This document shows positions 1-52,303 of a DNA stretch of 64,000 nucleotides, piece by piece. Numbering within the stretch: position 1 is the stretch's first letter; every line of letters starts with the position of its first letter. Under the pieces are notes generated by a model. The model was not told the DNA's origin and made no database searches. It saw only the letters and a list, made by a program, of their open reading frames with translations. The stretch lies in the IMG/VR virus record IMGVR_UViG_3300025030_000045. One strand, 5' to 3'. The position numbers were made by a program, and so were the translations under genes. This DNA is from a virus.

Positions 1-72
1 CAGCCTGCTTTAATTAGCAGACAACGATTTGGGTGGTCAGAGCACCCAATACAAATTCAAAAGGATTAAGCG

Positions 73-465
73 ATGTCAACACCCAGTCAGGAAAGAGAAA
101 TTGATAAGGAATATCTTGACGAAAATCCGGAGTGTTACTTTGTCTTCGGAGACAATACCATCCGCAAAGGATGTGGTGGTGCAGCAATCCTTCGGTTCCA
201 TAAACAGGCTATCGGATTCATAACGAAGATTCTCCCAACCCATGATGACCGTGCTTATTATCGGCCAGAAAATTACGAAGCGGTTTTTGGGCGCGAATTA
301 TCAAAGATCACCGCAAGAATTATTGCGGAACCCGATAAGACGTTCCTCATCTCTCGCCTCGGCGGCGGATTGGCAAATAAATACGGCATCTATGAGGCGA
401 TCATCAAAGACGGAATCCGCGTCCTCGCCAAATATCCCAATGTCGAATTTCTCTGGGAAGATTAA
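73..465 (+). CDS. Conserved phage protein, possibly macro-domain-like
   Basis: FVFGDN...GxGGAA...AIG motif and a C-terminal LGGGLA; SD-like AGGA upstream. Confidence 0.5.
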   Translation: MSTPSQEREIDKEYLDENPECYFVFGDNTIRKGCGGAAILRFHKQAIGFITKILPTHDDRAYYRPENYEAVFGRELSKITARIIAEPDKTFLISRLGGGLANKYGIYEAIIKDGIRVLAKYPNVEFLWED

Positions 466-472
466 ATAAACA

Positions 473-501
473 TTGACATTCGTGCTTCATCCTTGTATAA
501 T
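473..501 (+). promoter_or_regulatory. sigma70-type early promoter
   Basis: TTGACA-17nt-TATAAT; similar elements recur near 3696, 6058, 11339, 14828, 17984, 19949, 24127, 27399, 31454, 34533, 38683, 51476 and 54571. Confidence 0.8.
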
Positions 502-540
502 ACAAGAATCAAATAACCCAACACAGAAGGAGATCAACAG

Positions 541-777
541 ATGGCAAACGAAGCCCGCCTCATCGGTGGAAACAAATGGGAACGCGTTAATTCGTATCAC
601 ACCGGTGCAGAGCGCGTGAGTCCGCACAAGATCACCGTAAAGAAGTTCTTTGAGACAAACGGTCAGTTCCAATCGGCATGTGAAGTTGCCGGTGTCAAAG
701 TTACTCGGCGCCAGGCAAGCAAGTGGCTCAACGGTAAGGGTTCGGCCTATGCCAACCGCGGATCGGTGGTGCGCTAA
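541..777 (+). CDS. Hypothetical protein
   Basis: AAGGAG SD downstream of a consensus promoter. Confidence 0.6.
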   Translation: MANEARLIGGNKWERVNSYHTGAERVSPHKITVKKFFETNGQFQSACEVAGVKVTRRQASKWLNGKGSAYANRGSVVR

Positions 778-1040
778 TGAGAAAGTTAATCATCGTCGCA
801 CTAATGGCCCTCGCAATTTCCGGTTGCGGTACGATCGAACGAACCTACGATCAAGAAAATTATGAGAGCCTCTCGAACGAAGAAGGTACGCTGCATCTTG
901 TCGGTCCGGGTATGACGGATTATAAGGTTGTGCCCAATGCCAAGATCATTTACTCCAATGCAGATTCGATGGCGGTATTCTATAAAGTCGCCGGGAAGAA
1001 ATTTTATTGGCAGGGATTCGTCTGGATGGAAATTGATTAA
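777..1040 (+). CDS. Putative lipoprotein
   Basis: MRK, hydrophobic stretch, then ISGC lipobox. Confidence 0.65.
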   Translation: MRKLIIVALMALAISGCGTIERTYDQENYESLSNEEGTLHLVGPGMTDYKVVPNAKIIYSNADSMAVFYKVAGKKFYWQGFVWMEID

Positions 1041-1048
1041 TTCCTTCT

Positions 1049-1123
1049 GCCCGGTTGGGTGATCGGTTGAGCCACCGGACTCTAAATCCGGCAAGATGGG
1101 TTCGATTCCCATACCGGGCACCA
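1049..1123 (+). tRNA. Amber suppressor tRNA, anticodon CUA
   Basis: Cloverleaf with acceptor GCCCGGT/ACCGGGC, anticodon arm CCGGA-CTCTAAA-TCCGG, T arm ATGGG-TTCGATT-CCCAT, A73 and encoded CCA. Confidence 0.88.
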
Positions 1124-1134
1124 AAGGAAATAAT

Positions 1135-1329
1135 ATGACGAACGGCGCATTCAACCAAATTTCAACATATCATGAAATGTTTGTTGCTATGATGAACATT
1201 AGAAATGATTACCAAGAAACATGGTCATCAATGTCACCACACGATTTCTGTTGTATTATTATGAAAGAAACGCGTGGACATCTGAATCCGAACGTGGTGA
1301 TGGAATTCATCGTGGGTATGAATAAATAA
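1135..1329 (+). CDS. Small hypothetical protein with weak resemblance to the GatB/YqeY C-terminus
   Basis: AAGGA SD; IMKETRGHLNPNVV. Confidence 0.45.
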   Translation: MTNGAFNQISTYHEMFVAMMNIRNDYQETWSSMSPHDFCCIIMKETRGHLNPNVVMEFIVGMNK

Positions 1330-1353
1330 TATTCCAAAAAGAAAGGACGGTGA

Positions 1354-1401
1354 ATGACTATGCGCAATCTCTAGGTGAATCCTTATAGCAACCCGCCTTG
1401 A
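1354..1401 (+). other. Mini-ORF with in-frame amber: MTMRNL(TAG)VNPYSNPP(TGA)
   Basis: GAAAGGA SD upstream; TAG at 1372-1374, TGA at 1399-1401. Confidence 0.4.
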
Positions 1402-1474
1402 CAAGTTTACTTTATTGGCCCGTTTGATTTTTTCTATAAACTACCACTATTAAGTAAACCCAAGGAGATAAGCT

Positions 1475-1864
1475 ATGAGCGAAAACAAATTTTTCTTTCA
1501 AGATAAATCACAGTATGAAAATTTCATCGGTTCATGGAAAACGGCAACGAATTCCGAAATGAAACACAGATTAACGGTTGAACATTTTGTTCTCTATAAA
1601 ATGTTCAAGGGGCAAGATTGGACGAAGTGTTTTTGTCCTGCCACGAATCTCATTAAAATGCGATCACAAGGCAAGTCTTCCCCATATCACGCAGCCAACG
1701 AAGCAATGAGGAACATTGAATATGCGCAGACGCACAAATGGATCGCCGAAAACATGCTCAAACCCTTTGGAGGGAGTCTTACCTTTGAAGAGTTTCAGTC
1801 TCTTACAATCCCTACCAATCCTGAAGAACATTTCGGGTGCCATGCGGCGGTGGCAAATGCGTAA
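1475..1864 (+). CDS. Hypothetical protein
   Basis: AAGGAG SD; overlaps the next gene. Confidence 0.65.
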   Translation: MSENKFFFQDKSQYENFIGSWKTATNSEMKHRLTVEHFVLYKMFKGQDWTKCFCPATNLIKMRSQGKSSPYHAANEAMRNIEYAQTHKWIAENMLKPFGGSLTFEEFQSLTIPTNPEEHFGCHAAVANA

Positions 1865-2195
1865 TATTCCTTATACATATTGCTTCCTACGTGAAGACCT
1901 CAGCCAAGCTGCTTCCATTATCCAGGCGGCTCACGCTAACTTTGAACTCGGCCTGCGTTTGACCGACGAGGAAAAGCCGACAAGGACCGCTCATATGGTT
2001 CTTCTGGGTGTGTCGGGGGAAAAAGAGTTGATCCGAATCCACGAACAATTGAAGGAAGACGGCATCAAGTCCCACATTTTCTTCGAACCCGATTATGACC
2101 TCGGCTACACAGCACTTGCAACCCAACCGCTTTATGGAAAGAATCGGAACAGGTTCAAGAATTTTCAGCTGTGGACCGCGCCTGTGAATACCTAA
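1857..2195 (+). CDS. Peptidyl-tRNA hydrolase (Pth2-like)
   Basis: LREDL...QAAHA...VLL...F.EPD...TALA motif pattern. Confidence 0.7.
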   Translation: MRNIPYTYCFLREDLSQAASIIQAAHANFELGLRLTDEEKPTRTAHMVLLGVSGEKELIRIHEQLKEDGIKSHIFFEPDYDLGYTALATQPLYGKNRNRFKNFQLWTAPVNT

Positions 2196-2217
2196 CAAAT
2201 TCAAATACTTTCCCTTT

Positions 2218-2254
2218 AAAATGCTCGGGCAGAAATGCTCGGGCATTTTTTTTT
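2218..2254 (+). terminator. Intrinsic terminator
   Basis: ATGCTCGGGCA-GAAA-TGCTCGGGCAT stem with G:U pairs, followed by a T-run. Confidence 0.7.
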
Positions 2255-2353
2255 CTAATTTATTTACTTTTTCCTATTGACATACAACCAGCCTATGTTA
2301 AATTATAATTACACAATGATTAAAAAGGAAAAATTAAAAAAAGATTGTTAAAG

Positions 2354-2509
2354 AAAATAAAAAATGATTATTTAGAAAAAAATGATTGACATTCTCAAAA
2401 AGCTATATACAATATAATCAACACGATGATTCAACGGCACAAAATAAAAAAATGATTATTTGGAAAAAAGTTGTTTGACTTGTAAAAACATAGTATACAA
2501 TATAATCAA
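2354..2509 (+). repeat. Tandem duplicated A-tract-rich promoter-like unit
   Basis: Two imperfect copies of AAAATAAAAAATGATTATTT.GAAAAAA...TTGAC...TATACAATATAATCAA about 88 nt apart. Confidence 0.65.
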
Positions 2510-2586
2510 GATTAACAAAAAATGATTCATCCGCGCTGGGCGGTATTGAACATTCCAACGAACCAACAAACGAAAGGAGCTAGGCC

Positions 2587-3342
2587 ATGATTAAGAAAGA
2601 AATTTTGATTGCTGAAGCGGAGATTATTTCCAAACTGATGGGCAAAGGACAGTCCATTGCGGTTAGCCCGATCGAAAAGGGGCATTGGATGGTTCAGCTG
2701 CTCCGCGGTACGAAACCGATCCGCACCTTGAAAGACGATCTTCGCAACCGCGCCGAATGCAAAATTTTCCTTGACGGCATCCACACCCACATCGCACTGG
2801 GCTTCGCCAAGCCGCTCATCGAACTGACGAAAGCCGGCCTGACCGCCGACACCAAACACAAGCAGGACGAACTCCTCGCCAAGGAACGCGGCAAGGAAGC
2901 TCCCGAAAAGGCGCCCCGCTTGATGAAGGCTCCCCACGGTCTCAAGCTCAACAACGAACCGAAGAAAAAGCCCGGTCCGTTGCCCCTCGTCGGCAACCGC
3001 GCGCCTGATGCCAATGCTCCCTGGGGTTACAAGGCCGACGGCGTTACGCCGCGAGTGAAACCCGGCCCGAACAAAAACAAAGAGCCGAAGGTTGCTAAAC
3101 CCGTGAAAGAAAAGGTTGAAAAGGTTGCCGCGGCCGCCAAACCGGCAAAGGAACCTCGTGCCAAGAAGGCAAAGGTCTTGACCGAAGCCGATCTTATGGC
3201 AACCCACCTTCCGGGAGCCCTTGCCAACCACAAGATCGGATGCAAATGCGGCGCCTGCGTCGTGGTCCGCAAGCGGATGCTCGCGGGGCAGCCTTACCCC
3301 GCGCCGAAGACCCCTGCTCGTCAGGTGGCCGCCACCCGCTAA
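2587..3342 (+). CDS. Lys/Pro/Ala-rich basic protein, probably early and nucleic-acid binding
   Basis: AAAGGAG SD, GC-rich codons, histone-H1-like KPAK stretch, C-terminal HxxxCxCxxC. Confidence 0.7.
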   Translation: MIKKEILIAEAEIISKLMGKGQSIAVSPIEKGHWMVQLLRGTKPIRTLKDDLRNRAECKIFLDGIHTHIALGFAKPLIELTKAGLTADTKHKQDELLAKERGKEAPEKAPRLMKAPHGLKLNNEPKKKPGPLPLVGNRAPDANAPWGYKADGVTPRVKPGPNKNKEPKVAKPVKEKVEKVAAAAKPAKEPRAKKAKVLTEADLMATHLPGALANHKIGCKCGACVVVRKRMLAGQPYPAPKTPARQVAATR

Positions 3343-3365
3343 ACCAACACAAACCACAATCACAC

Positions 3366-3410
3366 AGGGAAAAGGCGATCTTCGGGTCGCCTTTTCCCTT
3401 TTCTTTTCTC
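3366..3410 (+). terminator. Intrinsic terminator
   Basis: AGGGAAAAGGCGATC-TTCG-GGTCGCCTTTTCCCT followed by a T-rich tail. Confidence 0.85.
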
Positions 3411-3451
3411 TTGTGCAATAAATAATTGATAAAACTAAGGAGGTTACAAGA

Positions 3452-3673
3452 ATGCTAAAATTCGTAAATTCAGTCGGTGGTCTATGTACAATGTGTATAG
3501 CAGCATTATTGATGCTGTGGATGCTTTTGGGAGGCATTCCGTGGTATGTCAATTGGTTATCCGATTCGTCAATTCGGAGAGCCGAAAATGAGGCTATAAG
3601 GATCAGAGTTATCGGTGAGGCTCTTAAGCAAAACAAAGAGTACGTCGATTATCTTCATGCAAAGAATTTATAA
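3452..3673 (+). CDS. Small membrane protein
   Basis: AAGGAGG SD; one N-terminal TM helix. Confidence 0.6.
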   Translation: MLKFVNSVGGLCTMCIAALLMLWMLLGGIPWYVNWLSDSSIRRAENEAIRIRVIGEALKQNKEYVDYLHAKNL

Positions 3674-3777
3674 TTAACAACCAACAAATTTTCTATTGAC
3701 ATTTTCTTCCGTTTAGGTTAAAATAAAGCTTGCCTTTGCGGAAAATAGAATATAGAAAAACAAGAAAGGATTTTACG

Positions 3778-4104
3778 ATGATCGCTTTCCTTAAAGCAAT
3801 TAAAACCCGCATGGGCACTGGCCAATTCAATCTACTGTTCTCTGTTTTTGCAATTGCATTTACCATGGCTGCGGGTGCATTCGGTGGTAATATTAATATT
3901 GCTTCGCTGTGGGGCCTCTTCGCCGCAATGCTTAATAATGTGGCCCTTTACATGGTTATTATTTTCACTCTTCAATACTTTCAGTTTGGTAGTCAACGTG
4001 ATGTCAACGAAAGTATCTTCAAAGAAGGTAATGTTGCGGCTGGTGTATTCCAAGGCTGCATCGTAATCGGTATTGCAATCGTGATGTCGAGAGCAATGCT
4101 TTAA
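3778..4104 (+). CDS. Putative holin
   Basis: About three TM helices; immediately upstream of the endolysin. Confidence 0.6.
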   Translation: MIAFLKAIKTRMGTGQFNLLFSVFAIAFTMAAGAFGGNINIASLWGLFAAMLNNVALYMVIIFTLQYFQFGSQRDVNESIFKEGNVAAGVFQGCIVIGIAIVMSRAML

Positions 4105-4121
4105 ACAACAAAGGAAAATAT

Positions 4122-4790
4122 ATGAGAGTGTTCACAGTAGCAATTTTACTGTGGGCTCTTTTAATAAATGGATTTAAAGAAACAGCGTATGCTGTAGAAA
4201 AAACTACTAAAGAGCCCACCTACGTTAACTTCCCAAGCTTAGCCGTAAAGACAGCTGAATCATATCTGTATGTAAGAGAAAAAGGCGGGGCGAATCGTGG
4301 AAAGGAAGTTGATAAATTCCACAACTTCGCTGGCCTTCCCTACGGCAATCCTTGGTGTCTGATGTTTATCAATTATATTTGGCATGAATCAAGTCAGCCG
4401 TATCTCCTAAACTTTCCCCAACATCGTGGTGCAAGAGTTTCACGCTTTCTTCAGCATGCAATCAATCGCCCTTATGAATATAAGGTCATAACATCGAAGT
4501 CACTTGTTTACGGTGTCAACAAACTTGAGGCCGGGGATATGCCTATCTGGGTCAAGGGTGCGAATAAGACGATGCTAGACAACTTCAACGGGCATGTTGG
4601 TATTGTCACCAAACAACTTTCGTCTACTGCTTTTGAATCAATCGAGGGAAACACCAGTAGCGGCGCAGGAGGAAATCAGCGCGACGGTGACGGTGTTTAT
4701 CGCCGTGTTCGTATTATTGAAATGGGCTCGGATTTTCGCGTAGAGGCTTTCGTAAGACACATCTTTCCGAAGAAGGAAATCAAACAATGA
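4122..4790 (+). CDS. Endolysin, CHAP-type amidase/peptidase with N-terminal signal
   Basis: PWC...GHVGIV...SIEGNT motifs; hydrophobic N-terminus. Confidence 0.8.
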   Translation: MRVFTVAILLWALLINGFKETAYAVEKTTKEPTYVNFPSLAVKTAESYLYVREKGGANRGKEVDKFHNFAGLPYGNPWCLMFINYIWHESSQPYLLNFPQHRGARVSRFLQHAINRPYEYKVITSKSLVYGVNKLEAGDMPIWVKGANKTMLDNFNGHVGIVTKQLSSTAFESIEGNTSSGAGGNQRDGDGVYRRVRIIEMGSDFRVEAFVRHIFPKKEIKQ

Positions 4791-5161
4791 GCAAAAATGT
4801 ATCAATAGGAATATTCATTCTCGTAGTTGTTTTGTTTTTAACATCTGCCTTTTCAATCAATTCATATTTCGGTTTAAAAAGGCAGATCGACATTATGGTA
4901 TCAGAAAAGGATAAACAACAAAAGATCGCCGATGCGGAAAAGGATGCAGCTGTTATGGCGGAAAGAACAAGACTCGGCAAAGAACTTGAAGCAAAGACAG
5001 CAGAACTTGAGGTTGCAAATGATCGCATAAAGCAATTGATTAGAGAAATCCCAACACCGAATAGGAAGGAAATAGAAGCCAATGTTAAGAAACTTAGCGG
5101 TACTGCCGTTGCTGATAATTTTAACAATCTCGATTATGGTGCCGAACTTATCATACGCTGA
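4787..5161 (+). CDS. Putative inner-membrane spanin (Rz-like)
   Basis: N-terminal TM plus coiled coil, directly after the endolysin. Confidence 0.6.
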   Translation: MSKNVSIGIFILVVVLFLTSAFSINSYFGLKRQIDIMVSEKDKQQKIADAEKDAAVMAERTRLGKELEAKTAELEVANDRIKQLIREIPTPNRKEIEANVKKLSGTAVADNFNNLDYGAELIIR

Positions 5162-5504
5162 AGAAGGCGTATTCTTTAAAATAGACCAAGCAAAGAAGCT
5201 GTTGGCAGATCTTCAGTATTATAAAGAAGATTCGAAAGCTAAGCAGACCCTGATATCGCTTCTCCGTGTTGAGGTTTCTAATGACGAGAAAATCATCGAT
5301 AAACAAAAAACGATGATTAGTTTGTTGGAAGATAACACAGCTGATCTTCAAAGACAATCAGCTAATTTTAAATTACTGTATGAAGAGGAGAATGGTAAGG
5401 TTCAAAAATTAATCAAAGACCAACCGTCGAGGATGACCTGGTTTAGTTATGGTGCAGGTTCTGCGGGGACCGTCTTTCTTCTACTGGCAATAGCATTGTT
5501 ATAA
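5082..5504 (+). CDS. Putative second spanin component
   Basis: Overlaps the Rz-like gene; signal peptide, coiled coil and hydrophobic C-terminus. Confidence 0.5.
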   Translation: MLRNLAVLPLLIILTISIMVPNLSYAEEGVFFKIDQAKKLLADLQYYKEDSKAKQTLISLLRVEVSNDEKIIDKQKTMISLLEDNTADLQRQSANFKLLYEEENGKVQKLIKDQPSRMTWFSYGAGSAGTVFLLLAIALL

Positions 5505-5507
5505 ATA
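5500..5507 (+). promoter_or_regulatory. T4-type late promoter TATAAATA
   Basis: Exact consensus; also at 21557, 52262, 53205, 59240, 60462, 63020 and on the minus strand at 30059-30066. Confidence 0.7.
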
Positions 5508-5550
5508 ATTTTTTTAAATAAACCAAACAGAAATTGAAGGAGGTTACACA

Positions 5551-5754
5551 ATGAAAGAAAGTACTTTCAATCGTTTTTTCACACAGGCAAAAACAGGCAA
5601 GCAGACACTTAAGGTTTTTCTCGAGGGAGAATCTCGCGATGCCAAGAAGACAATGTTGACGGGTGTCATTACTGATTTTGATGAAGAAGATATCGTTTTG
5701 GGTGAGTGCTTGATTCCGCGTAATCGGATCATCTCAGCAACACCTTTTAGATAA
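5551..5754 (+). CDS. Hfq/Sm-like small protein
   Basis: N-terminal helix then LKVFL...LTGVITDFDEEDIVL...LIPRNRIIS, matching the Hfq Sm1/Sm2 pattern. Confidence 0.55.
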   Translation: MKESTFNRFFTQAKTGKQTLKVFLEGESRDAKKTMLTGVITDFDEEDIVLGECLIPRNRIISATPFR

Positions 5755-5777
5755 TCATCATTTAAGGAGATACAAGT

Positions 5778-6026
5778 ATGAAGCAGACAAGAACAGACCC
5801 TAATGCCGAATTTACTACGGTCCTTCAGGCTGAAGTAACAGGTACGACCGCCGACACTCTTATTGCCGTCACGGGCATGGAAGCAACGGATGTTATCGTT
5901 TCTGTTTATGGTGCAACTGCCGGCCCAGCACTAACAGATTACACACCAACTGCTTTTGCTGGTGGTTTCAAATGTACCGAAGATACATCAACCATTGCTC
6001 TATTGGTTACATACAAAAAACAGTAA
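5778..6026 (+). CDS. Small Thr/Ala-rich, probably structural protein
   Basis: AAGGAG SD; beta-rich composition; downstream of a late promoter. Confidence 0.5.
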   Translation: MKQTRTDPNAEFTTVLQAEVTGTTADTLIAVTGMEATDVIVSVYGATAGPALTDYTPTAFAGGFKCTEDTSTIALLVTYKKQ

Positions 6027-6123
6027 AGAATATTTTCATAAAAAATCATTATTCTTGTTGACATGGCCTTCTCCTATTGTTATATTCAATCCAACTACGG
6101 ATTAATAACAATAGGAGAAGGCC

Positions 6124-7332
6124 ATGTCAGTTTATACCGGGCGAATTCTTAAAGAGAACATCGGGTGGTTTGAAACCAAGATTGAACGCTTAAACAAGAA
6201 AGCGAAGAAGCTTGGCTGTCCGCCGATCGTGGTTGTCTTTAATGGGGAAGAGTTTGCCCCCGCCACGATGTATTATGATAATGCTCGTTTCGGTGAAATG
6301 GTTACACTCGTCAATGTTTCCGTTAGCGGCGAAAGCCCGAAGATCAACGGTTGGGAGTTGGCCGCGGTCGTCGTCCCGGTTAACACGGAAGATGGAAATA
6401 AGAACATCATCTTAACTGTTCCTGATTTCATCATTCCCGAAAGATTCCGCGCCAATGATACTTTCTGCGAACATTGCAATTCTCAACGTCGCAGAAACAA
6501 TGTATTCGTCCTCCATAATATCAACACCGATGAATTCAAACAAGTCGGTCGTTCTTGCATTGCTGATTTCCTCGGTCATGCTTCTCCTGAAAGTTTTATG
6601 TTTTCCGCGGGATGGCCGAGACAGTTCCAAGAAATGTTTGAGGAAGGCCTTGAATTTAAATGTGGTTATGTTGCTGAATACGGAACAAAGAATTTCTTGG
6701 CATACACCGCGGCGGTCATTGATGTCTGTGGATGGGTAAGTCGCGGTGCTGCTGCCGACAACCCCAATCTTGCGGCAACGGCCGATCGTGTTCTCCTCAA
6801 CATGTTTCCTCCTACCTCTTTAGATGAACCGATCACACCTGAACCCAAACACCACAAAGAAGCCGCCGATGTCATTTCATACTTCCGCAATCTCAAAGAT
6901 GTGAAGAATGACTACGTTCTAAACTGCATCGGTGCTGCTCATAAAGAGACTGTTAACCTCAGAACGATCGGACTTACGGCATCTTTGATATCTGCTTACC
7001 GCCGGGAAACGATAAAGATTGAAGAAAAGCAGAAACCCACTGTTGTAAGTCAACACATCGGTGAGGTCGGTAAGTTGATCGAGGTGAAGGCGACGTTTGT
7101 CTCTGCCCACATCTTTGAAGGTGAATTTGGTATGACCGGGTATCACAAGTTCATCGATGACTGTGGGAACAACATCGTTTGGAAAACAAAGGTCCTCGGC
7201 CTGGAGAAAGATGATCGCGTTATCCTTTCTGGTCGCGTTAAGTCTCATAATGAATTCCGCGGCATTAAGGAAACACAGATCACCAGAGCAAAAATCATTA
7301 GCACCCAAAATTCAAACGGTAAGTGGGATTGA
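6124..7332 (+). CDS. Conserved phage protein with Zn-binding motif and C-terminal OB-like domain
   Basis: CEHC...QVGRSC; C-terminal G.VKSH.EFRGIKETQITR. Confidence 0.6.
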   Translation: MSVYTGRILKENIGWFETKIERLNKKAKKLGCPPIVVVFNGEEFAPATMYYDNARFGEMVTLVNVSVSGESPKINGWELAAVVVPVNTEDGNKNIILTVPDFIIPERFRANDTFCEHCNSQRRRNNVFVLHNINTDEFKQVGRSCIADFLGHASPESFMFSAGWPRQFQEMFEEGLEFKCGYVAEYGTKNFLAYTAAVIDVCGWVSRGAAADNPNLAATADRVLLNMFPPTSLDEPITPEPKHHKEAADVISYFRNLKDVKNDYVLNCIGAAHKETVNLRTIGLTASLISAYRRETIKIEEKQKPTVVSQHIGEVGKLIEVKATFVSAHIFEGEFGMTGYHKFIDDCGNNIVWKTKVLGLEKDDRVILSGRVKSHNEFRGIKETQITRAKIISTQNSNGKWD

Positions 7333-7568
7333 TACAAATAAGGAGCATCAAATGAAAAAGAATATCATATACGGTTCCTGCACCTGTGGAAAATGGGGTT
7401 GGCCACCAGAAGGCTTTGATGAGAGAAAACACTTTATGAAATGTCCTTGTGGAAAAACCGCCTTTCTTCTTCATTCTGACCCCGAGGAAGCCGGTGATAC
7501 AGAACGCTATAGGGTCGAGCTTACATTGACGGCACAGAAGTAATATAACGAAGGTGGAGAAATAAAAC

Positions 7569-7940
7569 ATGGTTCAATTAACGAGTAATAATGAGGGCAT
7601 CGTTCGTGAAGCAATTAATGTTTTACGTGAACTTGCCATTGGAATCGGCATAAAAGAAACAAAGTACGGGCTATGCTACAATCTCTTCACAACACTGCGC
7701 ATACAAGAATTTCCCCGACCAGTCATTAACGAAGTCGGTAATATGATTAAAGTGGCCTTTATGGAATGGCCCCTCTGTTCTGGTGACAGAGCTTATCCAG
7801 TACCCGGTGGGAAAGCTCGATATTTTAATACAGCGGATAAATGGGTCGGCGAGAATGGGAACCGGCGTAAGGAACTCTGTGTGTTCTGCGCTGATTATCT
7901 TGAGAAGTTATTAGCGGAGGAAAATCATGCCACGATTTAA
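7569..7940 (+). CDS. Hypothetical protein
   Basis: GGAG SD; operon context. Confidence 0.55.
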   Translation: MVQLTSNNEGIVREAINVLRELAIGIGIKETKYGLCYNLFTTLRIQEFPRPVINEVGNMIKVAFMEWPLCSGDRAYPVPGGKARYFNTADKWVGENGNRRKELCVFCADYLEKLLAEENHATI

Positions 7941-8172
7941 AGGAAGTTTGTTAAGAAGTGATCTTGAGACATTAGAGGTAGAACCCGGTCGATGCGGTGA
8001 AGGTCTTTCTGTAAATGTTGAGGAAATTCCTGAAGGTTCAGTTAGAATCTTTGCCGAACCGGTATCCACTCACACTGGCGGCCAACAGGGTAAGCTCAAT
8101 ATAATTTCTTTTTCGCTCGGCCAATTTATCGGAAAAGAAGTAGATGTTATTATCATCCCAAGGGAGAAATGA
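7927..8172 (+). CDS. Hypothetical protein
   Basis: GGAGG SD; overlaps neighbours. Confidence 0.55.
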   Translation: MPRFKGSLLRSDLETLEVEPGRCGEGLSVNVEEIPEGSVRIFAEPVSTHTGGQQGKLNIISFSLGQFIGKEVDVIIIPREK

Positions 8173-8507
8173 AAATGAATTGTGCACGTTGTATAATCGA
8201 CTCCGATGATTTTGAAATGCCACCAAAGAGTGATCTTTTCGGCGATACTAAAAAACACTGCGGTGATAAATGTTGTCCGTCGTTTCAATCAGCTCTTTAT
8301 TATGCAGTCGTCATATCCGTTGGAAGATATAAGGGTTATGCCGCCACATACGTCGGTATTGGTAAAATGACCTTTTTTAATGAAGCGACAGACGATACAT
8401 TTATCACCGATCACAATTTAATCAAACAGGGACAGAATAATGAACCCTGTTGGATGGAGTTGTGTTGGAATGATTTCCTGGAATATATTGAAATGAAAGG
8501 TCTATAA
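8169..8507 (+). CDS. Hypothetical protein
   Basis: ATGA overlap with the upstream gene. Confidence 0.5.
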   Translation: MKMNCARCIIDSDDFEMPPKSDLFGDTKKHCGDKCCPSFQSALYYAVVISVGRYKGYAATYVGIGKMTFFNEATDDTFITDHNLIKQGQNNEPCWMELCWNDFLEYIEMKGL

Positions 8508-18070: not shown

Positions 18071-19948
18071 ATGACAGCACCATTAAGAAAGAATGACATC
18101 GTAGAACTAACAGACGTTGAACATGTTATCAAGCGTCCGGGTATTTACATCGGTTCCGTTAAAGAGTCGGTAGTTCCTATCAGGATGTATGAAGATGACA
18201 AGATGGTCATCCGTGAAACAGCATTCCTTCCCGGGCTCCAAAAGATCATTGAAGAAGTCATTGATAACTGCATTGATGAAAGTATCAAGACGGGTTTTAA
18301 GTACGGCACGACAATCGAAGTCAAGTATGACAACGGCATTATCACGGTAAGAGATGATGGTCGTGGATTACCGATCGAGAAAAATGGGGATGATAAGTGG
18401 ATTCCAGAAATCATCTTTACCAAGCTGCGTTCCGGTTCAAATTTCGACGATGATAAGCTCGAAGAACAGAAGGGCCAGAATGGTGTCGGTGTATCACTCA
18501 CAAACATCTTCTCCAAGTGGTTCAGGGTTCGGACGGCCAACGGCGCACTGTTCTATGAACAGACATATCGGAACTCTACGATGGTCAAAGAAAAACCGAC
18601 CGTCAGAAAATCAACAGAGAATTTCACCGAGATTTCGTTTGAACCGAACTATGATTACTTTAAGATCAGTCAAGACGGAATGAACATCTTGCCACAATTG
18701 ATCTTCCGCTATCTCAAGAACTCCGCCTTCTGTTATCCAGAGATTTGCTTCAAATTCAATGGGAAGAAGATCACCGCCACTCGGCTGAAAATCTTCCTTC
18801 AGGGAATCAGCGAAAACTTTGAATACTTCGAAGGTCAGAAGGCTAGGATCGGCGTTTTCTATTCAGACACCGACTTTGATCATCTATCATTCGTCAACGG
18901 CTTAGAGACACGGCGGGGTGGATCGCATATTGATTACCTTTCATGGAAGATATGCGATAACATTCGGGAGTTCATCAAAAGAAAACATAAGCTTGACGTC
19001 AAGCCCGCCGACATCAAAAGTAAGTTGTTCATCATGTTCTCAATGAGGATGCCTGGAGCAAGATTCAACGGTCAGACAAAAGAAGAGTTGATGAATAGCG
19101 TCACCGATTTTAAAGATATCATTGAGGAAGTTCTTAATGATAAATTCCTCGGTGCCATCTGTCGGAATGCAGATATCATTGATCCGATCGTCGAGACATA
19201 TAAGCTGAAAGAACAGGTCAAAGAAAATCTTGCACTGAAGAACGCAAGCAAGACGACAAAGAAAATCCGCGTTGAGAAATATCTTCCAGCAACAAAGGAA
19301 CATAAGTATCTCGTTCTTGCTGAAGGTGATTCGGCCGTTGGTGGTATCTCCGCCGTACTTGGTCGGGAACAGTTTGGATTCTTTCCTCTCAAAGGTAAAC
19401 CCCTCAATGCCTTTGAGGCGGCGACAAGGAAGATCGTTGAGAATGACGAAATCAAATCTATTCGTGATATCCTTAACCTAAATCTAGTCAAAGATAAACA
19501 AGACGAACTTCGTTATCAAAATGTTCTCCTCACCACCGACCAAGATGCAGACGGTATACACATTCGTTCGCTGCTTCTAGGTTTCTTCCATCGCTTCTCT
19601 CCTTCCCTCGTCAAGTCTAACCGCATCAAGTACATGCGAACGCCCCTCATTGCCCTTAAAAAGAAAGACAAGATCGTTCACTACTTCTTTGACTTCAATG
19701 CATATAATGATTGGCTATCAAAGAACTCCACGAACGGCTTTGAAATCAAGTACTATAAAGGGTTGGGTAGCTTCCGTGGACCAGAATTGAAGGAGTTGAT
19801 TGTCCGCGAAGGCATTGACCATTTCATCCAGGACTTTGAGTTTGATGATGATGCTGCTACATCAATAAAGAATTGGTTAAGCGCTACGACCGTCGATGAG
19901 AGGAAGAAAGTACTCAGAGGAAATGCCTTCGTTATCGACGCAATGTAA
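18071..19948 (+). CDS. Type II topoisomerase large subunit (gp39+gp60 fused)
   Basis: EHVIKRPGIYIGS, DNCIDE, GQNGVG, AEGDSA, PLKGK, DQDADG, YYKGLG. Confidence 0.95.
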   Translation: MTAPLRKNDIVELTDVEHVIKRPGIYIGSVKESVVPIRMYEDDKMVIRETAFLPGLQKIIEEVIDNCIDESIKTGFKYGTTIEVKYDNGIITVRDDGRGLPIEKNGDDKWIPEIIFTKLRSGSNFDDDKLEEQKGQNGVGVSLTNIFSKWFRVRTANGALFYEQTYRNSTMVKEKPTVRKSTENFTEISFEPNYDYFKISQDGMNILPQLIFRYLKNSAFCYPEICFKFNGKKITATRLKIFLQGISENFEYFEGQKARIGVFYSDTDFDHLSFVNGLETRRGGSHIDYLSWKICDNIREFIKRKHKLDVKPADIKSKLFIMFSMRMPGARFNGQTKEELMNSVTDFKDIIEEVLNDKFLGAICRNADIIDPIVETYKLKEQVKENLALKNASKTTKKIRVEKYLPATKEHKYLVLAEGDSAVGGISAVLGREQFGFFPLKGKPLNAFEAATRKIVENDEIKSIRDILNLNLVKDKQDELRYQNVLLTTDQDADGIHIRSLLLGFFHRFSPSLVKSNRIKYMRTPLIALKKKDKIVHYFFDFNAYNDWLSKNSTNGFEIKYYKGLGSFRGPELKELIVREGIDHFIQDFEFDDDAATSIKNWLSATTVDERKKVLRGNAFVIDAM

Positions 19949-20288
19949 TTGACATCTCTCCAACTCTTTGATATAATAGGAGTCTTGATGAAACAAAGAT
20001 TAACTGAAGAAATGGCCAGGAGAGTTTATGATGAACTGATCGATGCTGCTGGAGCAAATCCTGTAGACAAAGATTATTTCATCTGGGCACTCAGTAATAA
20101 AGACCCGTTTTCACGATGGGTAATCATGAATAGCCGATTCGGTAAGTCTGTTAATTTTTGGAATGTCAATCATCGATTGTATGTTACAGTCGGTCATCTA
20201 TCTGTCAGTGAAGCAAACGAGAAAATACTCCATGAACTAAATGAACGACTACAATTAATCAACGATAAAAGAAACGGAGAAAAAGAAA

Positions 20289-20840
20289 ATGGCAAAACTT
20301 ACAATGGATGCAAAGAAGATAGCAGTCAATCGTTTAACCGCGGCGGTGTTTGCTGAACGCACGGCGGCACTTGATAAAATTAAGATTGAATTTTCGCATC
20401 GACTGTATGCGATCCTTACCGAGAATAAATCACAGGAAGTTCTTACCAAAGATATACCACTATCCTTCCGTAGCACATCTTGCACTTTTGATTGTCATCT
20501 TGAGGGCAGGAGTGTTAGTGGAAATATGGGAGATGAACGCGTCATCGTACCCCGCGATAACCGATTCAACACGGGATCAATTCCATTAGAGCAACAGCAG
20601 GCATTAGTGGTCGAGTATGTTGATATCACCGCTGACTATAAGAGCATCAGCAAAGACATGGATAGTTTTCGGTGGTCGCTCAATAATGCCATCAGAAATA
20701 AAACCACTCACAAGTCTGTAGTCGATGATTACCCGCAACTCGAACAGTACCTTCCATCAGACAACCTTCCAGCGAAATCATGCGGAACTGTAATTGATCT
20801 TCCGACCATGATTGAAGAGATGCAAAATAAACGTCCTTAA
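20289..20840 (+). CDS. Hypothetical protein
   Basis: GGAG SD; 183 aa. Confidence 0.55.
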   Translation: MAKLTMDAKKIAVNRLTAAVFAERTAALDKIKIEFSHRLYAILTENKSQEVLTKDIPLSFRSTSCTFDCHLEGRSVSGNMGDERVIVPRDNRFNTGSIPLEQQQALVVEYVDITADYKSISKDMDSFRWSLNNAIRNKTTHKSVVDDYPQLEQYLPSDNLPAKSCGTVIDLPTMIEEMQNKRP

Positions 20841-20849
20841 GGAGAACAC

Positions 20850-21059
20850 ATGAAACAAAAACTTAAAGCGGTAAAGGAATTCTTTTCTTTTCTGATTGAC
20901 ATGATGACACTACCGTTTCGATATGCATTTGATATCGGCGGGGAAAGATCGAACGACGGATGGGGTTTCGTGGGAATGATGGCGTTTTGTATCTTCATCA
21001 TTGAGGTGCTCGATGTCATTGTGCTTGTTTTACTCTATAAATTGTATTTTGGGAGTTAA
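20850..21059 (+). CDS. Small membrane protein
   Basis: AAGGAG SD; C-terminal TM. Confidence 0.55.
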   Translation: MKQKLKAVKEFFSFLIDMMTLPFRYAFDIGGERSNDGWGFVGMMAFCIFIIEVLDVIVLVLLYKLYFGS

Positions 21060-21062
21060 CGT

Positions 21063-21533
21063 TTGAAAATCACCGACTTCTTTACAAATGAACATTCTCA
21101 GTTTTCACAGTATGATCTTTATCGGTCAGTTGCTTGTTATGTAGATGGCCTAAAACCTTCCTCCAGAAAGGTGATCCATACGGTACTGCGGAACAATATT
21201 ACTTCACCGATTAAAGTCAGCCAGTTGATGTCTAAGGTTGCTGAATGTCTACACCCAGATACGCTGATTAACATTGAAGGCGAACTTATAACCGTCAAAG
21301 AATTGATTGGTAAAAATTTTGATATTCAATCATTTAATGAAAACTCTAAACAGTGGGAATTAGATGAATGTTTGGATGTATTTGTTACCAAACAGAGCGA
21401 CGAATTTATTGAGATCGAGTTGGTGAACGGTGAAACATTCAAGGTGACGCCGAATCATCCGATAAGAACGATTTCTGGTTGGAAGCGGGCCGATGCTCTT
21501 ACAGCGGACGATGAAATAGTTTCGTTAGTGTAA
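21063..21533 (+). CDS. Topoisomerase II gp52 N-extein (61 aa) fused to the N-half of a split intein (95 aa)
   Basis: DGLKPSSRK...KVSQL...AE then CLHPDT (block A, nt 21246) and VTPNHP (block B), then a stop. Confidence 0.92.
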   Translation: MKITDFFTNEHSQFSQYDLYRSVACYVDGLKPSSRKVIHTVLRNNITSPIKVSQLMSKVAECLHPDTLINIEGELITVKELIGKNFDIQSFNENSKQWELDECLDVFVTKQSDEFIEIELVNGETFKVTPNHPIRTISGWKRADALTADDEIVSLV

Positions 21534-21544
21534 TTTACGATTTT

Positions 21545-21592
21545 TCACCATGAAGATATAAATACCTTTAAACGGAGGTATCTTCATGGTGA
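21545..21592 (+). promoter_or_regulatory. Start-codon-sequestering hairpin with embedded late promoter
   Basis: Perfect 14-bp IR TCACCATGAAGATA/TATCTTCATGGTGA; TATAAATA at 21557. Confidence 0.8.
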
Positions 21593-22371
21593 TACAAGAT
21601 AAACCACATTCGTATTTAATTACACATTTACAGACAGGCGATCGTTATGTTGGAATAGTATTAAAAAGAGGGAAGACATTATTTGACAGATTTGAAGAAC
21701 ATATGACGAGAAGAGGCGCCCTTGGTTTTATTCCTTATCTTGAAGATGGTTTTTCGAATGACGATTTTTCCATATCTCTAATCAGTTATTATGATTCTAG
21801 GTATGAGGCTGGTAAAGATGAAACGAGATTAATCAAATCGTTAAAACCAGAAATTAATAACAACTGTGGTGGTAGTTATGACTGGGTGCACTACAAACTT
21901 CGCGGTTTTTGTTGGTTATCTTTTAGCGGACTTCGCCGCAAAATAAACAGCACACCAATTCAACGTAGAATAGATTCTTTATCTTTTACTCAATACGAGA
22001 ATGATTTTGATTATGATGGTCGTCATAACCGTGGTGGAGAATATGTAATTCTGTTAAACAGATTCGGTAGGGACCACACAAAAATTTTAAGTAATGATAA
22101 TTGGAAGAATGGTAGAAAAAAATATAAACAAAGAATGAACAAAAAAGAATTTACTGATGCTGAAAAATTGTCATATAGTAAAAGAGATGCAATGGTTAAG
22201 AATATATGGGAAGGCCGCGACGAAACCACCAGAAAAACAATAGCAGCGAATGGTTTATCAATAATGAATGCAAAAATTTGGGCCTGTGAACATTGTGGGT
22301 TCATAACAACAAAAGGTAACTACGGGAGATGGCATGGAGATAAATGCAAGCATAAAAATAAAGTCAATTAA
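21586..22371 (+). mobile_element. Free-standing homing endonuclease (GIY-YIG-like) between the intein halves
   Basis: SYLI...YVG...R..EH; C-terminal CEHC...RWHGDKC. Confidence 0.75.
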
Positions 22372-23611
22372 AAGAATAAAGTTAGAAAAACCAATTGACG
22401 TATATGATCTTCATGTGAAGAAAAATCATAATTTTCCTATTGGTAAATCTGGAATTTGTGTTCACAATTGCACACAATACTTACACGGTGAGCAGAGTCT
22501 CGGTGGCGTCATCTGTGGATTGGCCCAAGATTTCGTCGGAACGAATAACATTACGCTGATGATTCCCGATGGAACGTTCGGCTCTCGTTTGAAACCGGCC
22601 CCGTCTGCAACTCGTTACATCTTCACCTACAAGGCTCCTGTCTTTAATCAAATTTTCAATAAGGATGACATCCCGCTTCTCACCGAGCAGGTTTTCGAGG
22701 GAGATGTCATTGAGCCGAGATTCTTTGTTCCGACCTTGCCACTCATTCTCATCAACGGCTCAGAAGGTATCGGTTCTGGTTGGTCACAGAAGATTCTTCC
22801 TCGCGATTCTAAGGAGGTTACCAAACACATTCGTAATTATCTGAAGAATGGAAAATTGCCACAACGGATTGCTCCTTATTATAAGGGCTTTAACGGTGTG
22901 ATTGAATACGAAGCAGAGAAGAACCGTTGGTTGATTAAAGGTGACTTTGAGAAAGTCAATCGGACCACACTTCGTATTACAGAACTACCGATCGGATATG
23001 ACCTCGATAAGTATGTCAAAGTGTTGACAGAACTTGAAGAGAAAAAGGTCATCCGGGATTTTGATGACCTTTCTAATCCAGGAAATAGTAAGTTTGAATT
23101 CATCGTTAAGGTTACAAGCGAATTCATTGATCGTGATAAAGAGATCGTGCTCAATGATCTCAAACTCATCAAACGAGTAACAGAGAACTTCACATGTCTT
23201 GACGAGAACAACATGGTCCGCGAGTTCAAGTCTGATATTGAGATTCTTGAAGACTATTGCAAAATTCGTCTTCGGTATTATCAGCTCCGTAAAGACTCAA
23301 TTCTTGATAAACTTACGAATCAGATTACAGTTGCCCAAGCAAAGTATCAATTCATCGGTGACGTTCTTGATAAGGCGATCATCCTCGAACGCCGCAGGAA
23401 AGACGAAATCATTACACAGATCCAAGCTCGGGGATATGACGAGGTAGAAGGATCATACGCTTATCTCATCAACATGCCACTGCACTCTCTATCAGAAGAT
23501 ACGATGTCTGAATTAAAGAAAAAGTGGCTTGAGCATTCTGAAGAATATAAAGTAGTTGCCGATACGTCTCCTGGTCAATTCTGGGAAGACGATCTCAAGG
23601 AAATAAAATGA
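22334..23611 (+). CDS. Split intein C-half (45 aa) fused to topoisomerase II gp52 C-extein
   Basis: VYDLHV..NHNF...VHN/C then YLHGEQSL, FGSR, catalytic TRYIFT and LINGSEGIG. Confidence 0.92.
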   Translation: MEINASIKIKSIKRIKLEKPIDVYDLHVKKNHNFPIGKSGICVHNCTQYLHGEQSLGGVICGLAQDFVGTNNITLMIPDGTFGSRLKPAPSATRYIFTYKAPVFNQIFNKDDIPLLTEQVFEGDVIEPRFFVPTLPLILINGSEGIGSGWSQKILPRDSKEVTKHIRNYLKNGKLPQRIAPYYKGFNGVIEYEAEKNRWLIKGDFEKVNRTTLRITELPIGYDLDKYVKVLTELEEKKVIRDFDDLSNPGNSKFEFIVKVTSEFIDRDKEIVLNDLKLIKRVTENFTCLDENNMVREFKSDIEILEDYCKIRLRYYQLRKDSILDKLTNQITVAQAKYQFIGDVLDKAIILERRRKDEIITQIQARGYDEVEGSYAYLINMPLHSLSEDTMSELKKKWLEHSEEYKVVADTSPGQFWEDDLKEIK

Positions 23612-52250: not shown

Positions 52251-52303
52251 TTTTGAAAGAATATAAATAAAATAAACTCATTCAACATAGGAGTAACCAA
52301 CAT

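Follow-up and report, generated by a model that had tools for sequence, protein, structure and literature searches.

How does a phage obtain a whole topoisomerase subunit from a gene that lies in two pieces, with a further gene between them? The question is raised by positions 21063-23611 of the window, by which we mean the whole stretch of 64,000 nucleotides (nt) analysed here, from the IMG/VR virus record IMGVR_UViG_3300025030_000045. The two pieces encode gp52, the GyrA-like, DNA-cleaving subunit of phage topoisomerase II. An earlier reading made from the sequence alone (the sequence-only reading) had proposed that a split intein flanks a free-standing endonuclease gene at this position. 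Our analysis points to a fractured gp52 gene of a T4-like phage, in which two genes carrying the halves of a class-1 intein would enclose a GIY-YIG homing-endonuclease gene, and from the sequence comparisons described below we give this interpretation a probability of about 85%. Both the open reading frame (ORF) list and the raw sequence place three plus-strand ORFs, in three different frames, between 21063 and 23611. Their parts are as follows, with IntN and IntC denoting the N- and C-terminal intein halves, SD a Shine-Dalgarno sequence and aa amino acids.

21051-21055, plus strand: SD GGGAG of the N-half gene, read from the sequence and serving the TTG at 21063
21063-21533, plus strand: N ORF, starting at TTG; 61 aa of the gp52 N-terminus, then 95 aa (CLHPDT...SLV), then TAA
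21063-21245, plus strand: gp52 N-extein, 61 aa, ending KVAE; matches positions 1-47 of the Pfam DNA_topoisoIV profile, and PHROG 551 (topoisomerase II)
21246-21533, plus strand: IntN, 95 aa and TAA, with block A Cys1 (CLHPDT) and block B TPNH; net charge -11
21586-22371, plus strand: predicted free-standing homing-endonuclease gene, an ORF of 261 aa with its own SD and ATG; GIY-YIG domain at residues ~1-93, then a low-confidence linker, a helical region and a C-terminal CxxC...H...C
22324-22328, plus strand: SD GGGAG of the C-half gene, within the endonuclease ORF, with the ATG five bases further on
22334-23611, plus strand: C ORF, starting at ATG; 45-aa IntC ending ICVHN, then the Cys-led 380-aa remainder of gp52 and a stop
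22334-22468, plus strand: IntC, 45 aa, with block F VYDLHVKKNHNF and block G VHN; net charge +5
22469-23611, plus strand: gp52 C-extein, 380 aa and a stop, with Cys+1 (CTQYLHGEQSL) and the RY catalytic-tyrosine motif in SATRYIFT

The sequence-only reading had given an N-extein followed by a 95-aa IntN ending in TAA, and the ORF list and sequence reproduce these counts exactly. The same is true of its 45-aa IntC with a GGGAG SD of its own, a start inside the endonuclease ORF and a terminal HN/C. The overlap of the C ORF with the endonuclease ORF amounts to 38 nt. The placement of the TTG start and its SD is further supported by relatives of the N-half, which share an MKI(T/S)DF N-terminus. Given that the record comes from a metagenome-type assembly, an assembly or sequencing artefact could be suspected, in which case the locus would really encode an uninterrupted intein in which an endonuclease domain is embedded. 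Given the stops at 21531, 21559 and 22304 among the three frames, a single ORF would need at least two frameshifts and one stop read-through; with stops on every read-through path, the layout is impossible to obtain from a single sequencing error. The N-ORF protein is recorded identically from 23 contigs and the endonuclease protein from 19. Two related N-halves, one from the viral locus IMGVR_UViG_3300035180_002231 (hereafter L003) and the other the Logan protein P0002, end independently at matching positions, which argues that the stop is real. In addition, no intein is known to contain a GIY-YIG domain (PMC2677866). The frames and stops, taken together with identical proteins on 19-23 contigs, make an artefact very unlikely.

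Both exteins are recognisable as gp52. The C-extein scored 211 bits against the Pfam family DNA_topoisoIV, and matched yeast Top2 at E 4e-54 and the T4 gp52 structure 8yo3 at E 7e-35. On the PHROG 551 profile the two halves cover positions 10-77 and 74-450, respectively. When joined, they restore KVAE-CTQYLHGEQSL, a sequence colinear with that of intact phage gp52 and of yeast Top2 (CTAYHHGEQSL), bearing out the earlier description of this stretch as a conserved topoisomerase II motif. The closest phage gp52 matches come from Vibrio and Campylobacter T4-like phages, and in an alignment with the intact proteins of Vibrio phage Va1 and Campylobacter phage F207 the residues on either side of the break fall in adjacent columns, with KVSQIASKVAE/YTEYLHGD in Va1 against KVSQLMSKVAE/CTQYLHGE in the window. 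C-extein residue 4 aligned to residue 73 of 8yo3, which places the insertion at about residues 69/70 of T4 gp52, some 50 residues ahead of the catalytic tyrosine motif. The predicted spliced protein is 441 aa long; the T4 chain in 8yo3 has 442. The cysteine at +1 is confined to alleles that bear the intein, and ten intein-less relatives have Phe, Leu, Tyr, Glu or Lys at this position.

The sequences inserted at this break carry the complete set of class-1 intein residues: Cys1, the TxxH of block B (TPNH), the block F aspartate (VYDL...HNF), the terminal His-Asn and Cys+1. Block B falls opposite the TANH of Ssp DnaB in the alignment, all the relatives that we compared conserve it, and blocks F and G read VYDLHVKKNHNF...ICVHN/C. 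IntN matched the Pfam family Intein_splicing (PF14890) at E 3.7e-8 over profile positions 7-93, and IntC matched it at E 1.7e-4 over positions 122-155, so that the two matches are colinear and non-overlapping. Among solved inteins IntN matched the Ssp DnaB mini-intein (1mi8, E 1.7e-8) and NrdJ-1 (8ubs, E 2e-6), as well as Spl DnaX, and the PHROG search also linked it to a family of helicases with an IntN. The structure matches of IntC were weak and nearly all fell on the C-terminal strands of Hint domains. Aligning the locus with intact gp52 and with known inteins, a check that the sequence-only reading had itself suggested, therefore gives a clean KVAE/C break together with matches of IntN to Ssp DnaB and NrdJ-1. 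A Pseudomonas phage pf16 match to IntC residues 23-45 was discarded as a spurious extension; the gp52 of pf16 is intact at 446 aa.

An acidic IntN and a basic IntC were found in all five related split inteins that we compared. Complementary charges of this kind would favour association whether or not splicing follows, and phage enzymes that are split by endonuclease genes and work without splicing are documented (PMC2677866; preprint 10.1101/2022.08.31.505936). The gp52 halves might then assemble without splicing into a three-piece enzyme, like Aeh1 NrdA or T4 gp39/gp60, with the intein acting as a non-covalent clamp or as a poor splicer. However, both the window and L003, whose intein is 45% identical, retain all the splicing residues. 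Such conservation would be unexpected were the chemistry dispensable, and we consider assembly without splicing improbable.

The gene between the two halves had been called GIY-YIG-like, a description that gains support from its homologues, its conserved catalytic residues and its predicted fold. An exhaustive HMMER search returned 158 relatives of the protein. In an alignment of 21 of these, Y10, Y21, G23, R35, F36, H39, F61 and E79 are fully or almost fully conserved; together with N91, within a GLN motif, the set fits the GIY...YIG-Arg-His-Glu-Asn pattern. PF01541 was matched by 11 of the 21, with a best E of 1.4e-7. An AlphaFold2 model built with the alignment of relatives had a confidence score (predicted local distance difference test, pLDDT) of 77, with values of 88-97 over residues 11-90; from the endonuclease sequence alone the pLDDT was 32. 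The first ten structures ranked by Foldseek were all GIY-YIG domains of I-TevI and UvrC, with template modelling (TM) scores of 0.52-0.68 on the target, and the top matches were to the I-TevI catalytic domain (1ln0 and 1mk0; TM 0.66-0.68 on the target, probability 1.0). A lead from the ESM Atlas likewise pointed towards GIY-YIG. Residues ~165-257 comprise a helical region and a CxxC...RWH...C motif common to many phage homing endonucleases, and this C-terminal part is shared with annotated homing endonucleases of Synechococcus phage S-B43 and of T4-like coliphages; it is presumably the DNA-binding part. From the homologues, the catalytic residues and the predicted fold together, we assign the middle gene to the divergent GIY-YIG homing endonucleases. 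Sequence searches of Pfam, PHROGs and the PDB with the endonuclease gave nothing useful, the endonuclease, and likewise IntC together with the junction, returned the window's own proteins only in word-index protein searches, and a narrower endonuclease alignment run against viral contigs gave a single uninformative locus. The exteins and the gp39-like gene upstream have a G+C content of 0.43, compared with 0.34 for the endonuclease gene and 0.26 for IntC, and the low value of the insert marks it as foreign DNA. No paralogue of the intein or of the endonuclease was found within the window.

The 52-nt spacer ahead of the endonuclease gene contains three elements that bear on its expression.

21545-21592, plus strand: interrupted 19-bp RNA hairpin, pairing the SD and AUG of the endonuclease gene
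21557-21564, plus strand: putative T4-type late promoter box TATAAATA, between the 5' arm of the hairpin and the SD
21574-21578, plus strand: endonuclease SD GGAGG, paired within the hairpin, as is the AUG at 21586

The hairpin has a predicted free energy of -23.4 kcal/mol (z -5.6), and none of 200 shuffled sequences was as stable; in a longer context the values were -24.2 kcal/mol and z -5.8. RNA beginning at 21571 loses the hairpin and folds no better than shuffled sequences (-6.6 kcal/mol, z -0.2). RNA folding found the start regions of both gp52 halves to be unstructured. The TATAAATA box occurs nine times in the window where 2.4 copies would be expected, eight of them on the plus strand, and in the part of the window with the structural genes five other copies lie 14-35 nt ahead of an ORF start. 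We note plus-strand boxes at 52262, 53205, 59240, 60462 and 63020 (and 5500), a distribution that fits T4-type late promoters. For I-TevI, I-TevII, I-TevIII, segB and Aeh1 mobE, a ribosome-binding site hidden in a hairpin and a late promoter that lets late transcripts escape it have been described (PMC2988022). By analogy, we infer that the gp52 halves would be translated early or in the middle period and the nuclease only late.

GIY-YIG genes controlled by a hairpin and a late promoter are typical of the group I introns of T4 (PMC2988022), and RNA splicing therefore deserves consideration: the insert would be a group I intron carrying an endonuclease gene, and the resemblance of its flanks to Hint domains fortuitous. 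Yet a search of 20800-23000 against Rfam returned no family, group I introns included, even at E 1, and the flanks, which continue the reading frames of the exteins, match both intein profiles and solved inteins. On these grounds a group I intron was rejected, and RNA splicing is in our view scarcely credible.

How widely is this arrangement found? Fifty-five of 56 IMG/VR loci with a gp52 relative are uninterrupted at the KVAE/C site, and L003 (5986-7900) is the only one of the 56 with a split intein there. One of the 55, IMGVR_UViG_3300042453_004574, has a contiguous intein further downstream. In L003, a gap of 46 nt separates the end of the N-half (5986-6555) from the ATG of the C-half at 6602, with no endonuclease gene between the two. 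A third N-half with an intein at this position is P0002, whose IntN shares with that of L003 an extra C-terminal tail of 27 residues (PVINK.T.ITEMID...) in addition to the matching end point. Between the window and L003 the identity is 45% for IntN and 46% for IntC (E 8e-8), but only 33-38% for the exteins, whereas the intein-less loci L004-L009 are 41-45% identical to the window in the C-extein and 57-64% in the N-extein. These identities indicate that the distribution of the intein does not follow that of the host gene. Judged by sequence, this pattern fits horizontal spread or repeated loss.

The next nearest IntN in IMG/VR sits in a fractured large-terminase gene (L060; IMGVR_UViG_3300032116_001500, 4344-7095). 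Between these terminase halves, at 5171-5833, the opposite strand carries a 220-aa ORF for which Pfam gave no match. Among 50,697 phage records, IntN-like sequences occur in helicase, UvsX-like recombinase and terminase genes, with one exception, LR756500.1 (L064), an unannotated 462-kb genome of an uncultured huge phage. Here a topoisomerase A-subunit gene is fractured at YHHGD/SALN, about nine residues downstream of the KVAE/C site, with a 102-aa IntN, a 300-aa ORF that is not GIY-YIG and a 39-aa IntC. Cys1, which in the window directly follows KVAE, is conserved in L003, P0002, L060 and L064. A megablast of the locus against the 50,697 records found no match, no sequence in IMG/VR fitted a degenerate DNA pattern written for an intein-free AECTQYLHGE allele, and metagenome scans with the IntN alignment and with a further protein, P0003, gave no matches.

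Several other interruptions were noted in related genes. P0003 is a 118-aa Joint Genome Institute (JGI) protein from a 1139-bp contig, whose gp52 N-terminus is 46% identical to that of the window. It reads normally through ...SKTSE-TTQ and then continues as unrelated sequence, three residues beyond the window's intein site; from its sequence it may represent another type of insertion at the same hot spot. In LR756500.1 (161844-169353, reverse complement, numbered from 1 below) the gp39-like large subunit is fractured too, at 3-3474. Its N part runs to 1586, with a long intein-like extension after ...IFEGL/C; a 373-aa ORF follows at 1629-2750; and its C part (2740-3474) begins with an IntC-like ...ISHN/SALSAV that leads into the Toprim domain. 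As the A-subunit gene is fractured as well, both topoisomerase II subunits of this one phage are in pieces. Finally, IMGVR_UViG_3300042453_004574 (3082-8409) encodes a 1775-aa fused topoisomerase II of the type found in eukaryotes and giant viruses, with two contiguous in-frame inteins. One is in the Toprim DQD...DGSH motif and the other at GQFG/C...THN/SRLKGG; these are further sites in the enzyme family.

Against the interpretation of the locus as an active, mobile split-intein gene stand the following points. Taken singly, the intein halves fall below the Pfam gathering cut-off, with 33.8 bits for IntN and 21.8 bits for IntC where 35.8 are required, and it is only their rough sum, 55.6 bits, that exceeds it. 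The endonuclease protein itself had no PF01541 match in Pfam at E 0.1, and its GIY-YIG membership rests on its relatives and on a predicted fold with a best Foldseek E of 2.4e-3. Recent mobility would be easier to argue from a near-identical intein-less sister allele, and none was found in the 50,697 phage records or in IMG/VR. Lastly, T4 topoisomerase mutants are only DNA-delay, and selection for splicing may be weaker than it would be in an essential gene.

That T4 topoisomerase genes are not strictly essential also leaves room for a dead gene, in which the insertion inactivated gp52 and the phage uses host gyrase. Against this, the exteins are open and score strongly (DNA_topoisoIV at 211 bits, and 380 aa with no stop), each half retains an SD and start codon of its own, and the same split intein persists in the distant phage L003. 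The gene for the partner subunit is also intact.

18071-19948, plus strand: gp39-like large subunit of topoisomerase II, unsplit, 625 aa (Pfam HATPase_c, DNA_gyraseB, Toprim and TOPRIM_C)

We therefore hold inactivation to be decidedly improbable. Three small ORFs (135, 183 and 69 aa) occupy 19949-21059, between the gp39-like gene and gp52, of which the 183-aa ORF matches PHROG 1965, a family without an assigned function, and the other two have no match.

If gp52 is indeed fractured by a trans-splicing intein, we envisage the following course of events. Both halves would be translated from read-through mRNA of the early or middle period. IntN, which is acidic (-11), and IntC, which is basic (+5), would associate and splice in trans, giving a 441-aa gp52 with the junction peptide KVAECTQYLHGEQ, which would work together with the gp39-like subunit. 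On the read-through mRNA the endonuclease would be silent because its SD and AUG are paired; following the logic of I-TevI, only late transcripts with a 5' end within the hairpin would allow its synthesis. The endonuclease would cut intein-less gp52 alleles of co-infecting phages, and the 1.2-kb insert would be copied into them in full during repair. Were the endonuclease gene lost, a plain split intein of the kind seen in L003 would remain.

The locus is a new member of a known fractured-gene layout, at a second gp52 site. The sequence-only reading had suggested that the insertion site might be new and did not list gp52 among the known hosts. The site stands as new against the literature that was searched, in which we found no published gp52 split intein, many subscription papers being outside the reach of that search. 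As a host gene gp52 is not unique, since undescribed fractured copies are present in public sequence, in L003 and P0002 at the same site and in LR756500.1 at a neighbouring one. We lean slightly towards a fuller proposal: that KVAE/C is a second, undescribed gp52 intein site, that the allele series of the window and L003 records the passage from endonuclease invasion to a stable split intein, and that the intein may furnish an orthogonal Cys+1 pair for ligation. With gp52, the DNA-cleaving subunit of phage topoisomerase II joins the enzymes fractured by split inteins. Two sites nine residues apart show that the short helix-turn around YxHGE/D, beside the DNA-gate helix, was invaded on at least two occasions. 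Alleles with and without an endonuclease at one site illustrate the evolutionary route of Dassa et al., and the compact 95+45-aa pair, whose charges are opposite and whose native C-extein begins CTQ, is a candidate tool for orthogonal trans-splicing. Nothing conceptual is changed: the mechanism, the type of endonuclease and its late-expression control are textbook for T4-like phages.

How, then, does the locus compare with systems already known? The cellular GyrA inteins, for example that of Mycobacterium xenopi, also interrupt the DNA-cleaving subunit of a type IIA topoisomerase, although they are contiguous and reside in cellular genes. The mycobacterial GyrA site adjoins the catalytic tyrosine, about 50 residues downstream of the site used in the window. 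Fifty contiguous GyrA inteins have been counted in bacteria (Novikova et al., PMC4760082). In phages, the gp39-like Topo2L ORF1 of the metagenomic MGS5 is mentioned in passing as interrupted by Hint-VSR-HintC (preprint 10.1101/2022.08.31.505936). This is likewise a phage topoisomerase II with intein halves around an endonuclease, but there it is the ATPase/Toprim subunit that is interrupted and the endonuclease is of the Vsr type. LR756500.1 has the same host protein family, layout and broad intein type and a KIKSIK-type beginning of IntC; it differs in the position of the break on the Pfam profile (56/50 against 47/38 here), in having Ser at +1 and in its middle ORF, which is not GIY-YIG.

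The endonuclease shares with I-TevI of the T4 td intron and with the T4 seg genes the GIY-YIG fold, a hairpin sequestering the ribosome-binding site and, if the box at 21557-21564 functions as one, a late promoter (PMC2988022). I-TevI differs in residing in a group I intron, the identity between the two domains is 17-18%, and the C-terminal part is of another kind here, in which Pfam finds no NUMOD. Homing-endonuclease genes also cut T4 gene 39/60 (mobA) and Aeh1 nrdA (mobE) in two, but these phage enzyme genes have no intein and their pieces associate non-covalently. A close parallel in layout is provided by the fractured genes of uncultured marine phages, with gp41, IMPDH, DnaE, NrdA, NrdJ, ligase and terminase as hosts and no topoisomerase among them (Dassa et al. 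2009, PMC2677866), a set with which the hosts named in the sequence-only reading agree. Like those genes (gp41-1 to gp41-8, NrdJ-1, IMPDH-1, NrdA-2, DnaE, ligase and terminase), the window has two same-strand genes, each made of an extein and an intein half, a free-standing endonuclease gene between them, a phage DNA enzyme as host, overlapping frames and a hairpin ahead of the endonuclease gene. It departs from them in its host, gp52, and in an intein that is only distantly similar to theirs (NrdJ-1, E 2e-6).

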